Shown here: positions 2,004-12,962 of the stretch, one piece after another | Layout of the letters: every line of letters begins with the position of its first letter | How positions within the stretch are numbered: the first letter of the stretch is position 1 | DNA from: Methanocaldococcus jannaschii DSM 2661 | GTDB taxonomy: Archaea > AGJL01 > Methanococci > Methanococcales > Methanocaldococcaceae | Direction of reading: 5' to 3' | Assembly (NCBI RefSeq): GCF_000091665.1 | Contig: NC_000909.1 | Coordinates: forward strand, 940,712 to 972,711 | DNA length: 32,000 nucleotides | Notes under the pieces: model-generated | Seen by the model: the letters and a program-made list of their open reading frames with translations, nothing else | What the model was told of the DNA's origin: nothing | Databases searched by the model: none | Translations under genes and position numbers: made by a program

Positions 2004-2849
2004 TTATAATTTTATATCATCCTTTAAAGCATATCTTATCGGAACAAATATTGCTAAAAATATTATAAGCATTACTAAAGCCGCTCCCCATGCCATCTGG
2101 TGGTCTTCTATAGAAGGACTTTGAACTAATGTATAGATGAGGAGAGGAATTGCTCCAACTGGCTCTAATGGATTTGTTGGATAGACCTCATACAACCCTC
2201 CTGCAGTAAATAGTAGAGGAGCTGTTTCTCCAGCAACCTTTGCCATACCAATTAAAATTCCTGTTAAAATTCCTTTTTTAGCCATCTTCGTAATAACTTT
2301 GAATATTACTTGTGCCCTTGTGCATCCTAACGCATAACCTCCTTCTTTATAAATCTTTGGGACTTCTGCCATCGCTTCTTCTGTATAAACTGCAACATAA
2401 GGAGTTAATATTAAAGCTAAAGCCAAAGCCCCAGCTAATGCTGAAAAAGTTCCCATAGGAACAACTAACATACCCATGACAAATGTACCAACCAGTATAG
2501 TTGGGAATTCTAACATTATCTGCAGTAACATCTTTGTAGCTCTTCCAATAAAGCTGTTTGGGAATTCATAGGCATAAGCTCCAGCTAAGAAAGCTAAAGG
2601 TAAGCCAATTAAAGTCGCTAAGAATGTGAGCATTAAAGTCCCAACTATTGCCGGACCTATTCCTCCCTCACTCAACGTTCCAGTTATGAAAGTTAAGCCC
2701 CTTTCCATTATTATTGGTAGTCCTTTTTCAACAATTGAAATTATTATATGGAATAAAGGGAGTATTGCCAATAAAGTTAATGCCCCAACAATAAATAGAA
2801 ATATCTTATCTTTAATCATTCTAATGGTTTTATGTTTAATGGGAGACAT
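2004..2849 (-). CDS. pstA: Phosphate ABC transporter permease PstA
   Basis: Polytopic membrane protein, second permease of the pstSCAB order. It overlaps pstC by 14 nt. GGTGGAG SD lies before the ATG. Confidence 0.9.
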   Translation of the reverse strand: MSPIKHKTIRMIKDKIFLFIVGALTLLAILPLFHIIISIVEKGLPIIMERGLTFITGTLSEGGIGPAIVGTLMLTFLATLIGLPLAFLAGAYAYEFPNSFIGRATKMLLQIMLEFPTILVGTFVMGMLVVPMGTFSALAGALALALILTPYVAVYTEEAMAEVPKIYKEGGYALGCTRAQVIFKVITKMAKKGILTGILIGMAKVAGETAPLLFTAGGLYEVYPTNPLEPVGAIPLLIYTLVQSPSIEDHQMAWGAALVMLIIFLAIFVPIRYALKDDIKL

Positions 2850-3774
2850 GCTCTCTCCACCTCTTCAAATAATAAATTCCAATGATATTAACAACCAATC
2901 CTATAACAAACAGCACTAAACCAGCAGAGTAGAGGACAGAAGTCATATACTCATACAACACTGCATTTCCAAATTGATTTGCTATCAATGATGATATTGT
3001 ATATCCTGGAGCAAAGAGCTTGTAAGTTAGGTTGAAGGAGTTTCCAATAACCAGTGAAACAGCAACTGTTTCTCCTAAAGCCCTACCAAAAGCCAATATA
3101 AGCCCTGAAATTATGGCTGGTCTTATGTATTTTATTAAAACCTTTGTGGTTTCATATCTTGTTGCTCCTAAAGCAACTAAACCCTCTTTATAAACAGATG
3201 GAATCATTGCATAAGCCTCTCTAATAATAGCTGCTGCAAATGGAGTAACCATTATTCCCAACAAAATTCCTGCTGATAGATAGCAATAACCTGATAATGG
3301 AGGGTAATCAAAGAGTGGAATAAATGAAAAATGTTCATACAAAAATTTCATAATATGGTCTCTTAACAGAGGGACTAATATGAATGCTCCCCATATACCA
3401 TAAATTATTGTTGGAAGTCCTGCCATAATATCTGAAATTACAATTAAAGGATATTTCAGTCTTTTAGGAGCATAATCATTGACAAATATTGCATAGCATA
3501 TAGATAGAGGCAAAGCTATTAAAACAGCAATTGTTGCTGTATATATACTACCCCAAATTGGCGCTGCTAATCCATAAACTTCTTTTGCAGGTTCTTCAGC
3601 CGCTTTCCAAACATTTGTTATAAATAAATCAATACCATATCTCTCAATAGCTGGGAGTGCATTGAAGAAATAAAAGCCTAATATTAAAACAAATAATATA
3701 AACACAACAAATATTGCTGGTAATGTTATTATTTTGAATTCATCTATCTTTCTTAGGAGTTTTTTAATCTCCAT
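2836..3774 (-). CDS. pstC: Phosphate ABC transporter permease PstC
   Basis: Polytopic membrane protein immediately after pstS. The ORF track begins at TTG 3783. I prefer ATG 3774-3772 (MEIKKLLRK...), preceded by an AGGTTGA SD-like sequence. Confidence 0.9.
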   Translation of the reverse strand: MEIKKLLRKIDEFKIITLPAIFVVFILFVLILGFYFFNALPAIERYGIDLFITNVWKAAEEPAKEVYGLAAPIWGSIYTATIAVLIALPLSICYAIFVNDYAPKRLKYPLIVISDIMAGLPTIIYGIWGAFILVPLLRDHIMKFLYEHFSFIPLFDYPPLSGYCYLSAGILLGIMVTPFAAAIIREAYAMIPSVYKEGLVALGATRYETTKVLIKYIRPAIISGLILAFGRALGETVAVSLVIGNSFNLTYKLFAPGYTISSLIANQFGNAVLYEYMTSVLYSAGLVLFVIGLVVNIIGIYYLKRWREHVSH

Positions 3775-3924
3775 GGTTTTCAACCTTTTTTAATCCTTAT
3801 CTTATGGCTTTTATAAGTTCTATTTTAATAAGACTTTCGCAGGATTAAATAATTGTAACATTGTATATTGCTTAATAAAAATATTATTCCCAAATATAAA
3901 ATTTCTTATCTTTAAATTTGGATT

Positions 3925-3947: not shown

Positions 3948-5081
3948 TTATTCTTTTATCATATTTACAGCATTTAATCCAATCTTAGCAACATCTTCTG
4001 GTAATCCTACATAACCTGGAGCTAAATGCTCTGGTTTCTGCCCTTCTGTTAATACCCATGTTAAGAAATCTTTTATAGCTTTAGCTTTTTCTGGAGAGTA
4101 GTGCTTACCATTTTTGTTTTCCCAAACTAATAAGTGTGTGAATGCAACTATTGGATAGGCATTGTCTCCAGGGGCATCCAACATCTGCTTTAAATCCTCT
4201 TTGTATCCTTCTGTTGGGTTTGGAATACTTGCCTTAACTGCTGAAACTGCTGCTTTTATTGTTTCATCTGTTGGTTTAACAAATTTACCATTTTTGTTTT
4301 CTAATGCTGCAACTGGAAGTTTTTGTTCTATTGCATATGAAAGCTCAGTATATGCAACTGTATAAGGCGTTGATTTCACTATTGCTACAACACCTGGATT
4401 TCCTTTTCCAGCGACTCCCCTGCCTATATTATCAGTTGGCCAATTAACAGTTTTTCCAGCTCCAACTTTTTCAGCCCATTCCTTACTAATTAAGCTTAGA
4501 TATGTTGTAAATATGGCGGTTGTTCCACTTGCGTCACTTCTATGAACAACGATAATCTTCTCATGTGGGAGTTTATCAGCAATTTCTGGGTTTATTTTTT
4601 TAATTCTTTCATCGTCCCAGTATTCAATCTTACCTAAGAATATATCAGCTAAAACATCCCTACTCAATTTTAAAGTTTTATCTCCAATTTCTGGGATGTT
4701 GTAGGTTACAACCACAGCACCAACAATTTCTGGGAATTGTAATGGTTGGTCTCCTGTTGATAAGAATTTCTTCCACATGCTTTCTTTAACTGGAGGGTCA
4801 GTTCTTCCAATATCAGTTAAACCTTTTGCAAATGCCTCTTGCCCGTATCCTGAACCTCCTCCCTCATACTCAATCTTGACATTAGGATGGGTTTTTTGAT
4901 AATCTTCAATCCATTTCTGGATTTGGTATTTTGGGAATGTTGCCCCTGTAGTCCTAATTATTATGGTACTTGGTTTTTCATTATTTGACGGTTGAGAATT
5001 ACCTCCACCAACACATCCAGCTATTGAAATTACTGGGACTATTAAACACAGCCCCAATATTAATGCCAATATTTTTTTCAC
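3948..5081 (-). CDS. pstS: Phosphate-binding lipoprotein PstS
   Basis: Periplasmic-binding-protein sequence with a signal peptide and lipobox (KKILALILGLCLIVPVISIAGC). The ORF track starts at TTG 5117. GTG 5081-5079 is preceded by GGTGAT (5090-5085), so I place the start there. Confidence 0.9.
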   Translation of the reverse strand: MKKILALILGLCLIVPVISIAGCVGGGNSQPSNNEKPSTIIIRTTGATFPKYQIQKWIEDYQKTHPNVKIEYEGGGSGYGQEAFAKGLTDIGRTDPPVKESMWKKFLSTGDQPLQFPEIVGAVVVTYNIPEIGDKTLKLSRDVLADIFLGKIEYWDDERIKKINPEIADKLPHEKIIVVHRSDASGTTAIFTTYLSLISKEWAEKVGAGKTVNWPTDNIGRGVAGKGNPGVVAIVKSTPYTVAYTELSYAIEQKLPVAALENKNGKFVKPTDETIKAAVSAVKASIPNPTEGYKEDLKQMLDAPGDNAYPIVAFTHLLVWENKNGKHYSPEKAKAIKDFLTWVLTEGQKPEHLAPGYVGLPEDVAKIGLNAVNMIKE

Positions 5082-5102
5082 AGCATCACCTTTTGTAGGT
5101 TG

Positions 5103-5214
5103 TGTGGTGTCATTCAAAACTTTTTTAATGATTTAAGGTATAGATGAACGCCTTCTAAAAGAAGGCGTTCAAAATTTTCATTAGTAGATTTTGTTATTTT
5201 TGAATGACACCATA
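5103..5214. repeat. Palindromic element copy E2 (108-112 bp) in the pstS upstream region
   Basis: Arms TGGTGTCATTCAAAA 5105-5119 and TTTTGAATGACACCA 5198-5212 are a perfect 15-bp inverted repeat (17 bp with one mismatch). Central TGAACGCCTTC(5145-5155)-TAAAA-GAAGGCGTTCA(5161-5171). Shared symmetry centre about 5158. Confidence 0.8.
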
Positions 5215-11140: not shown

Positions 11141-11260
11141 GAGGGCTGTCTGACCCAGCCCGATGAGCTGAACCTGCCCTGTGACCTACCGGCGACGGTA
11201 GGGAGAAGGGTGTTCCCCGTGGGAACCTCCGAGCTTTAGCTCGGAGAGGAGGTCAGCTTT
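11141..11260 (+). ncRNA. GC-rich structured small RNA of unknown family (high-GC island in an AT-rich hyperthermophile genome)
   Basis: 74 of 116 nt (11141-11256) are G/C by hand count. There are four hairpins inside a closing helix, a GCGA tetraloop, G-U pairs that only work on the plus strand, an upstream TATA box and a 3' T-run (11258-11261). Confidence 0.65.
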
Positions 11261-12962
11261 TAACATTTCTTATATTTACTAAAGCTCCATGCTTTGCCTT
11301 TTTCATTTCAAAACCACTCATCAAAGCTCTTCCAATCCCTAAAAATGTATCATCTTTAATTAAGACGACTTCATCATTATAGGAAATATTTTCATTGCAA
11401 TCAACAAATCCGGGAGGAAAGAGAGAACCTTTTTTAATTTCATAATTTACTTCAATATAGTTGATGTCTTTTCCCCCACTGTTCCACAACAACTCTCCCC
11501 CACTTAAGGTTAAGATAAGCAAACCATTTTTTGGATTTATTGATGCTATTTGTTGATTTTTATTGTTAATTTTTGTAAATATTTGCCCCTTATGATTTAT
11601 AAATATTTCGTTTGGTATAAAGTTTATGCCAAATTGAAACTCTGCAAGTTGCTGAATATTATGAATTCTTTGTCCCTTTTTATTTATATCTTTACTTTTT
11701 GTTAGTTCTTTATACTTTTTTAGTGTGTCAGTTAAATTTTTTAAAGCTTCTTCTGATGTTGGATTTCCTTTTGATGTAATAACAATATCATCCAACTCCA
11801 AAATCTCAAGGTAGTGTTCTGGAAGATGAGCTATAACAATATAATCATCAAATTTCTCCTTAACCTTCTTTAAGAAGTTTTTTAAACAGTTGTTTATAAG
11901 CTCTATCTCTTCAAAACTCCATTCTCCAGTTACTGGAATGTCATAATTGACTAACCTTTCCAAAGCTCTCGGCACTAATCCGTAGGGAGATGTTAATATA
12001 ACTTCCTCAACAACAACTTTTGCAGATTTTATCGCCTTTATAAATTTTTGGTGAGATTGGGAAATTGAGTAGGGCTTTTTTGATGAGCAAGGTAATAAAA
12101 CTATAATGTTTGAATACGGCTCATAGTTATCTAATCTTTCCAAATATTTTTTAACCTCTGGAATATTAATGTTGGTTGTTACAATAATCTTATTTTCTTT
12201 TGATAACGGGATGTTTCTTAAATCTGGCTCATATCTTCTATAATTTGCCCACAAATATGGATGAGATACAGCTGTTTCTTCAACAACATTTCTTAGAAAT
12301 CCATTTTTTATAGCTATCCTAACTTCTTCTAAGATTTCCTCATAAACTTTTTTATTGTTATTATATAATTCCTCAAAACTAAAGCTATCTACCTTTACAG
12401 CCCTATTTTTTGTAAATTTGTAGCCCATTGATGCATATAACTTAGCTAATGAGTCATCAAAGTAATCAACGCCTATATAAGCCAATAGTGGAATTTCCCA
12501 AGGAAATACAGCTGGGGAGTAAATAGCTGAGTTTGGAGATATTTTTTCTCTAATTTTTGGTATTATTTGAAGTTCTTTTCTTTCTATCAACCTTCTACCA
12601 TCTGCTATGATATATAAATCAGCATCTTCCAATTCAATTAAATCAACGTGCTTACCAAAGTTTAGTATTTGATATTTAAATACATTACCCTTATATTTAA
12701 CAGTTCCAATAAAAGATTTTTTAAATATTGAGGTTAGTTCTCTAAATGTATCAAAAGGCATCTTTATGCCATCAGCTTTAACATAGGACTTTCGCAGTTC
12801 ATATATGGATTTGGAATTTGGACACCTAAAAGGTGTCATTATACCATAAAAAATTTTTTCCTGCGAAAGTCCTATGACATCAATGTCAATTAGCTTAGGG
12901 GTTAGTTCTTTATCTTCCTCTTTGCACAGTCTTCCAATATCATAGGCAATTGGTTCGAGCAT
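11253..12962 (-). CDS. arcS: Archaeosine synthase ArcS (tRNA preQ0-15 modifying enzyme), with C-terminal PUA domain
   Basis: The ArcS signature PC-X3-KPY-X2-S-X2-H is present as PCSSKKPYSISQSH. The C-terminal PUA-like domain is ...VVLIKDDTFLGIGRALMSGFEMKKAKHGALVNIRNV. Confidence 0.85.
   Translation of the reverse strand: MLEPIAYDIGRLCKEEDKELTPKLIDIDVIGLSQEKIFYGIMTPFRCPNSKSIYELRKSYVKADGIKMPFDTFRELTSIFKKSFIGTVKYKGNVFKYQILNFGKHVDLIELEDADLYIIADGRRLIERKELQIIPKIREKISPNSAIYSPAVFPWEIPLLAYIGVDYFDDSLAKLYASMGYKFTKNRAVKVDSFSFEELYNNNKKVYEEILEEVRIAIKNGFLRNVVEETAVSHPYLWANYRRYEPDLRNIPLSKENKIIVTTNINIPEVKKYLERLDNYEPYSNIIVLLPCSSKKPYSISQSHQKFIKAIKSAKVVVEEVILTSPYGLVPRALERLVNYDIPVTGEWSFEEIELINNCLKNFLKKVKEKFDDYIVIAHLPEHYLEILELDDIVITSKGNPTSEEALKNLTDTLKKYKELTKSKDINKKGQRIHNIQQLAEFQFGINFIPNEIFINHKGQIFTKINNKNQQIASINPKNGLLILTLSGGELLWNSGGKDINYIEVNYEIKKGSLFPPGFVDCNENISYNDEVVLIKDDTFLGIGRALMSGFEMKKAKHGALVNIRNVKS
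12782..12876. repeat. Palindromic element copy E3 (95 bp) inside the arcS coding sequence
   Basis: CATAGGACTTTCGCAG 12782-12797 and CTGCGAAAGTCCTATG 12861-12876 are a perfect 16-bp inverted repeat. Central GACACC(12821-26)-TAAAA-GGTGTC(12832-37). Spacers are 23 nt each and the symmetry centre is 12829. Confidence 0.8.

Follow-up and report, generated by a model that had tools for sequence, protein, structure and literature searches.

A palindromic repeat element inserted in frame in the archaeosine synthase gene arcS of Methanocaldococcus jannaschii

Main finding

We analyzed a stretch of 32,000 nt from the genome of Methanocaldococcus jannaschii DSM 2661 (contig NC_000909.1, positions 940,712 to 972,711; hereafter the window), in which a 95-nt palindromic element lies inside arcS (MJ1022), the gene for the alpha subunit of archaeosine synthase (Table 1). 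With a probability of about 0.9, we believe that this is a non-autonomous repeat of the MJRE type, resembling a miniature inverted-repeat transposable element (MITE), which inserted in arcS free of stop codons and in frame, and which is tolerated as a 32-residue loop of the protein. A preliminary description made from the letters of the window had proposed a tolerated insertion of this kind, and the proposal has held up well: all of the ArcS homologues that we aligned are gapped at this place, four related loci have clean 96-nt empty sites, and the element belongs to a dispersed repeat family.

Table 1. Coordinates of arcS and of the repeat elements in the window.
Feature	Position	Strand	Evidence
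arcS, MJ1022, archaeosine synthase alpha subunit, 569 aa	11253..12962	-	Open reading frame and NCBIfam NF040592
Palindromic repeat element, 95 nt	12782..12876		Empty-site alignment, family alignment, 102.7 bits against model R1
Left terminal inverted repeat, CATAGGACTTTCGCAG	12782..12797		Direct reading and family alignment
Right terminal inverted repeat, CTGCGAAAGTCCTATG	12861..12876		Direct reading and family alignment
Central hairpin, GACACC-TAAAA-GGTGTC	12821..12837		RNA fold, family covariation
A6T6 tract within the element	12848..12859		Family consensus counterpart GAATAAAT
Probable truncated copy, solo end AAGACTTTCGCAGGATTAAATAATTG	3830..3855		nhmmer E = 0.018 and direct reading
E1, a different palindromic element, terminal repeat TTATAGTTTTTGCAAAA	517..626		Architecture shared, sequence not
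E2, another palindromic element, terminal repeat TGGTGTCATTCAAAA	5105..5212		Architecture shared, sequence not

Empty sites in related genomes

In an alignment of 24 ArcS sequences, comprising M. jannaschii, other members of Methanocaldococcus, Methanotorris, Methanothermococcus and Methanococcus, and two more distant homologues (P0073 and P0079), every one of the 23 homologues lacks the 32 residues and is gapped exactly there, over IGLSQEKIFYGIMTPFRCPNSKSIYELRKSYV. The closest of them, from M. fervens, M. bathoardescens, strains 10A, 16A and 28A, and metagenome-assembled genomes, are 83-85% identical to the M. jannaschii protein and have lengths of 535-537 aa, compared with 569 aa. All lengths among the close relatives are within 535-547 aa. 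Conservation of these residues at the protein level, which the preliminary description had named as the outcome that would speak against an insertion, was found in no ArcS orthologue. At the DNA level, four Methanocaldococcus loci (75-85% protein identity) align with a single clean gap of 96 columns. The letters at the empty site are ...ATTGATGTTAAAGC..., as against ...ATTGATGT/CATAGG...CCTATG/TTAAAGC... at the filled site. In M. fervens and M. bathoardescens, the 21.6 kb surrounding arcS contain no such element.

The inserted DNA is thus 96 nt, or 32 codons, and corresponds to residues 30-61 or, because V29 and V61 are interchangeable, 29-60. The preliminary description was right that the reading frame stays open and that about 32 amino acids are added, although the approximate extent that it gave, residues 29-61, is slightly too long. 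In the DNA, the position of the junction is uncertain over 4 nt, since the plus strand has ACAT both at 12781-12784 and at 12877-12880, and the simplest reading of these letters would be a 95-nt palindrome plus one duplicated A. The insertion site directly follows the TPKLIDI strand, which is conserved near the N-terminus, and belongs to a stretch of variable length, rich in indels across the Methanococcales. The frame of the 29 codons upstream is kept, and residues 1-28 hardly differ from those of the orthologues. As far as sequence comparison goes, both the insertion into arcS and the membership in a repeat family can be regarded as established.

Sequence and fold of the element

The element consists of CATAGGACTTTCGCAG, 23 nt, GACACC-TAAAA-GGTGTC, another 23 nt, and CTGCGAAAGTCCTATG, and 64 of its 95 positions are self-complementary. 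We confirmed that the two 16-mers are exact reverse complements and that the central hairpin (GACACC at 12821-12826, TAAAA at 12827-12831, GGTGTC at 12832-12837) is concentric with them, with a common center at 12829. The additional pairing of TATGG (12804-12808) with CCATA (12844-12848), which had been assigned to the same center, does exist, but its center is at 12826, and the offset of 3 nt implies a bulge.

In 200 windows simulated with a first-order Markov model, no perfect 16-bp inverted repeat with arms 20-150 nt apart occurred, while the real window has three such 16-mers, which come from E1 and the arcS element. The predicted RNA fold of the element at 37 C has an energy of -39.2 kcal/mol, compared with -13.7 +/- 2.9 kcal/mol for shuffled sequences (z = -8.9, with none of 200 shuffles as good), and the DNA fold has a z of -8.2 relative to shuffles. 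These results, together with the recurrence of the sequence at non-coding loci, agree with the earlier argument that coding constraint is an unlikely source of the palindrome. At 85 C, which is near the growth temperature, the RNA structure is worth only -5.4 kcal/mol, so that the mRNA hairpin, which had been called strong, deserves that word at 37 C but not in vivo.

None of the families in Rfam matches the element, and the only Rfam match in the window is the HgcC RNA described below. When the element was compared with 72,556 plasmids by blastn, the matches were all chance ones in Staphylococcus.

A dispersed repeat family

By scanning metagenome contigs for the pattern GGACTTTCGCAG-N(50-75)-CTGCGAAAGTCC, we found five further loci, and the six copies align with a mean column identity of 80%. 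The terminal repeats of the family have the form (N)GGACTTTCGCAG, and the core GGACTTTCGCAG is identical in the six copies, five of which were chosen by that very pattern. The outer 4 nt of the repeats vary among the copies, with complementarity to the other arm kept. The interior has a definite orientation, with TTYATATATG...TTGGAAYTTT on one side and ...ATTTATTC on the other. The loop of the central hairpin is not conserved (TTTG, CAAAG, TTAT and others), and its stem covaries (GACATC/GATGTC, GATGCC/GGCATC, ATGC/GCAT).

We built a covariance model, R1, from the six copies, which score 76-106 bits against it. R1 finds an extra, diverged copy (L012:80-167, called L012b) at 50 bits, whose arms, AATAGGGCTTACGCA and TGCGTAAGCCCTATT, have compensated changes, and whose detection is independent of the scan pattern. 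Over the seven copies, 12 of 23 stem pairs are changed on both sides. No shuffle out of 500 came to this level, and when the partners are slid out of register there are at most two such pairs. Perfect 12-bp cores were a condition of the scan for five of the copies, one that did not extend to L012b, to the central hairpin or to the outer four pairs.

The copies come from Methanocaldococcus and from vent-metagenome contigs. One locus lies between a fruA-type hydrogenase gene, which ends at TGA followed by a GC-rich stem resembling a selenocysteine insertion sequence, and the fruD protease gene. The fruD protein at this locus clusters at 90% identity or more with M. jannaschii FrcD, and the copy is also present on contigs whose FrcD protein is identical to that of M. 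jannaschii, from which it follows that the family resides in M. jannaschii and its close relatives. Two copies are intergenic, and among about nine copies examined, only the one in arcS is within a real gene. We also compared the peptides encoded by the element in both orientations with 5.8 billion proteins, and the one match was a spurious open reading frame (ORF) over a copy in an rRNA spacer.

Two side observations concern other copies. One metagenome contig with an rRNA operon has two of them, L012b upstream of the 16S gene and L012:1956-2050 after the spacer tRNA and ahead of the 23S gene, so that the primary rRNA transcript would include both. Within the window, a solo end lies in the spacer between the ORFs at 2836..3783 and 3948..5117, and is probably a decayed copy.

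Probable translation through the element

When the five other full copies are read in the orientation and frame of arcS, each has a stop codon (TAA or TGA) right after GLSQE, with further stops beyond. The arcS copy reads ...GLSQEKIFYGIMTPF..., in which AAA and ATG replace the TAA and TAG of the other copies, and in its A6T6 tract, a T-to-A difference from the consensus GAATAAAT abolishes an in-frame TAA. Since the insertion of 96 nt is divisible by three and this copy is stop-free, it is expected to be translated as 32 extra residues. The loss of the stops, the length that is a multiple of three, and the keeping of the frame argue, on the evidence of the coding sequence, for read-through by the ribosome and against removal at the RNA level.

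In an AlphaFold2 model based on the 24-sequence alignment (mean predicted local distance difference test score, pLDDT, 85.5; predicted template modeling score, pTM, 0.83), the only segment with a pLDDT below 50 is residues 29-59, so that mapping the insert onto a model, as the preliminary description had proposed, places it in the single low-confidence segment of an otherwise confident structure. The insert is probably a disordered surface loop in this model. Overall, the model resembles ArcTGT (TM score 0.55). No solved structure covers the N-domain of ArcS by sequence.

The M. jannaschii enzyme is reported to be active, and archaeosine is present in M. jannaschii tRNA (PMC11298593), which indicates that the insert is tolerated. 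The preliminary description called arcS essential; it is better described as important at high temperature than as essential beyond doubt.

In four of the Logan assemblies from the ERR97657xx runs, we noted an allele in which arcS is split into ORFs of 40 aa and 528 aa, the downstream ORF beginning at an ATG within the element. Three of these contigs (L018-L020) read the A6T6 tract as A5T6 or A5T5, and the contig L021, the last of the four, stops short of it. Other runs of this series give an intact arcS, and the split alleles are probably a homopolymer sequencing error.

Inversion of the fruA-fruD copy

The copies between fruA and fruD in two contigs (L008:1401-1495 and L015:8620-8714), from two closely related Methanocaldococcus lineages, have identical terminal repeats, and flanks in the same orientation, but their 63-nt interiors are identical (63/63) only when one of them is reverse-complemented. 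We compared further contigs with this locus (L032-L042). One orientation is found in all seven contigs with an M. jannaschii-type FrcD and the opposite one in all six contigs with a sister-type FrcD, and a contig from a further lineage (L011) has the orientation of the sister type. Because the contigs come from Joint Genome Institute (JGI) and Logan assemblies of different projects, the inversion is not an assembly artifact. An inverted interior at the same site means either that the element was inverted in place or that it was excised and then re-entered at that site. The same site has a degenerate remnant of about 35 nt in M. fervens (L016) and is empty in Methanocaldococcus sp. 16A (L017).

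An interaction of one arm with the other, which could be recombination, template switching or hairpin repair, appears to keep the two arms complementary in this family. Such an interaction would explain why the arms vary from copy to copy and are still perfectly complementary, and the inversion at fruA-fruD points in this direction too.

Proposed history of the insertion

We propose that the element entered arcS after M. jannaschii had split from its sequenced relatives, mobilized perhaps by a transposase acting in trans, and that it landed in the length-variable loop just past the TPKLIDI strand. Ordinary or out-of-frame insertions would truncate ArcS and then be lost, and selection would thus act as a filter, passed by a copy only if it is in frame, has no stop codon and lies in a permissive loop. 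The extra peptide and the hairpin may have no function at all, with ArcS still working.

Several points weigh against this explanation. The usual target-site duplication of 2-10 bp cannot be demonstrated at the arcS copy, which has only a single A on each side or the ambiguous 4-nt ACAT. The flanking bases of four family copies are A/A, T/T, T/T and A/A, which is at the level of chance in AT-rich DNA, and there is no consistent pattern of target-site duplication over six copies. We found no autonomous element with matching ends, although the complete genome was not scanned for one. The presence of the insert in mature ArcS is a prediction from sequence, and a low pLDDT would arise there anyway, since no homologue of the insert is in the alignment. 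Finally, the match to MJRE, the published palindromic repeats of M. jannaschii, is a match to the descriptions given in citing papers, so that MJRE2 is a putative label and MJ1022 a candidate for one of the three copies located in ORFs.

There is a transposable element in this region in a relative. In M. fervens (L013:12100-13100), two genes downstream of arcS, we noted an IS1595-family element whose transposase is split into two ORFs. Its ends, AACGCTCATC and GATGAGCGTT, are unrelated to those of the arcS element, and it is present neither in the window nor in M. bathoardescens.

Alternative explanations

The alternative that survives best, improbable as we consider it, is that the insert has been exapted, so that its residues or the mRNA or DNA hairpin alter the activity or partner dependence of ArcS, pause translation, or act as an invertible coding cassette. 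It draws some support from biochemistry. According to PMC11298593, M. jannaschii ArcS, the only ArcS with the insert, is the one reported to make archaeosine directly from NH4+, Asn or Gln, while three other enzymes, those of T. kodakarensis, T. acidophilum and M. acetivorans, depend on RaSEA and transfer lysine. RaSEA is, however, also present in M. jannaschii (PMC11298593), and the difference in activity may have other causes. The insert is distant in sequence from the PCSSKKPYSxSxSH motif of the enzyme, residues 291-304, and it is modeled as disordered. The insert is unlikely to be the cause of direct amidation. As for an effect of the hairpin, its energy of about -5 kcal/mol at 85 C speaks against it.

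The idea of an invertible cassette has two observations in its favor, as the sister copy at fruA-fruD is inverted in place and the arcS copy has no stop in the arcS frame whichever way round it lies. A flip between the 16-bp terminal repeats, as in the sister copy, would swap 24 of the 32 insert residues (35-58) and leave the gene unbroken. The openness in both directions is unsurprising, however, since the consensus of the family usually has no stop when read the other way. We found no flipped arcS allele in a collection of 15 billion proteins, nor among 13 public contigs in which the element is readable, all of which have the reference orientation (10 intact contigs and three of the four frameshift alleles; L021 lacks that end). 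That the arcS copy goes beyond a tolerated passenger, as a reversible coding cassette or as the basis of direct, RaSEA-independent amidation, seems to us very improbable.

We give very little credence to an archaeal bulge-helix-bulge intron or a mini-intein, in which case the 96 nt would be lost from the RNA or the protein and mature ArcS would be without the insert. The long terminal helix would indeed bring the two junctions together, but the junctions lie within an unbroken, perfect 16-bp helix, which does not fit the two 3-nt bulges, separated by a 4-bp helix, of the bulge-helix-bulge motif. A spliced element would need neither a length divisible by three nor the loss of in-frame stops, and both hold here. 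As for an intein, 32 residues are far below intein size, and they have no intein motifs.

It is barely conceivable that the segment is ancestral and was deleted in every other lineage. The region is prone to indels, which makes this a formal possibility, but it would require many independent and identical 96-nt deletions across the Methanococcales, and the boundaries of the segment coincide exactly with the terminal repeats of a family that is dispersed at unrelated loci. Lastly, that the palindrome is a chance by-product of the arcS coding sequence can be dismissed in view of the simulated windows, the fold statistics and the non-coding copies given above.

Other palindromic elements in the window

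E1 and E2, like the tolerated insertion in arcS, are long hairpins, with a central GC-rich stem. The preliminary description matched the arcS element to them; this is correct for the architecture, but there is no detectable similarity in sequence. Homology of E1 or E2 to the arcS family was rejected for the sequence, as nhmmer with the family profile finds neither of them. Against R1 they score 28.5 bits (E1) and 20.4 bits (E2), well apart from the 76-106 bits of the six copies used to build the model and the 50 bits of L012b, and these marginal scores reflect the common long-hairpin shape. The TAAAA loop of the arcS element is, as had been noted, identical to that of E2, but the loop is not a conserved feature of the element's own family.

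E1 has a relative in strain 28A (L003:7021-7132), at a non-orthologous position. The two differ at two places in the 17-bp terminal repeat, both compensated in the opposite arm, and their central stems likewise differ with compensation (GAACGCC.../GAATGCC...). The gene order that is common to the window, M. bathoardescens and M. fervens stops at E2. Past this point, M. bathoardescens and M. fervens have chemotaxis genes (methyl-accepting chemotaxis protein, MCP, and CheD), and the window has a 389-aa ORF, the 5' end of which overlaps E2 by 13 nt. The window thus contains at least two or three distinct palindromic families, which fits the published division into MJRE1-3.

The arcS gene and its surroundings

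The 569-aa product of MJ1022 scores 466 bits against the NCBIfam equivalog model for ArcS, NF040592 (cut-off 440), contains the DUF5591 and PUA domains, and is identical to Q58428 and AAB99026.1. Among the adjoining genes, MJ1023 and SerA match DSM 2661 accessions exactly, and the translation of the carA ORF clusters at 90% identity or more with the annotated CarA, MJ1019. The window is therefore part of the chromosome of the type strain. On the strand opposite to arcS, the HgcC noncoding RNA (Rfam RF00062, 150.9 bits, full length) is found at 11141-11269 (+), where it overlaps the final 17 nt of arcS, including the stop codon.

Significance and comparison with known systems

The arcS insertion is a clean and datable case in which mobile DNA adds residues to a conserved enzyme, since the empty sites of sister species define what was added and where. 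The selective filter is visible in it, as the sole genic copy has a length that, with one flanking base, is divisible by three and has lost the stops of the consensus. There is also a practical side. Biochemistry and structures of M. jannaschii ArcS involve a lineage-specific, probably floppy insert of 32 residues, which no other ArcS has and which could be trimmed off.

Insertions of this kind are already known, as both MJRE in the M. jannaschii genome and the Rickettsia palindromic element (RPE) have been published. Suyama, Lathe and Bork (FEBS Lett 2005; 579:5281; PMID 16182294) surveyed this genome and described the palindromic MJRE as elements "with coding potential". MJRE reportedly comprises 141 copies in three groups, with three MJRE2 copies located in ORFs. 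A genome-wide survey would hardly overlook a copy with a perfect 16-bp terminal repeat. PMC2229807 and PMC2996958 describe MJRE1-3 of M. jannaschii as palindromic and inserted in frame in housekeeping genes; the statement in the preliminary description that some MJRE2 copies lie within ORFs agrees with these two papers. As far as their descriptions go, the likeness of the arcS element to MJRE is close: both are from the same genome, are palindromic, have a size of about 100 bp (95 nt for the arcS element), and are mostly extragenic with few in-frame genic copies. The arcS element is also repeated at several loci, namely the truncated copy at 3830-3855, the fruA-fruD spacer and the five metagenome loci. 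What may go beyond the 2005 paper are the empty sites in later genomes, the vent-metagenome and rRNA-spacer copies, the loss of the stop codons, and the inversion at fruA-fruD. The stop loss, the metagenome and rRNA-spacer copies and the exact inversion are useful additions that leave the overall picture unchanged.

Prokaryotic MITEs such as Correia/NEMIS, ERIC and RUP, and SM1-4 of Sulfolobus, are small, non-coding and dispersed, have terminal inverted repeats, vary among strains and are often co-transcribed (PMC2229807). The arcS family resembles them in its conserved terminal repeats, its dispersal, and its precise empty sites (four loci for arcS and sp. 16A for fruA-fruD). It differs from them in that a clear target-site duplication and a cognate insertion sequence (IS) were not identified, and in that its repeats differ among copies and are nevertheless mutually complementary, which would be unusual if recognition by a transposase were all that conserves them.

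The closest functional analogue of the arcS element is the RPE, which is likewise inserted in frame with retention of function. As summarized in PMC2996958, the RPE of Rickettsia (Ogata et al., Science 2000) and its kin in Wolbachia lie in frame in housekeeping genes, usually in unstructured surface segments, and the function of the host protein is kept. The RPE differs in that its hosts are bacterial, its sequence families are others and its copies within ORFs are many, while in the arcS family one of about nine copies is genic.

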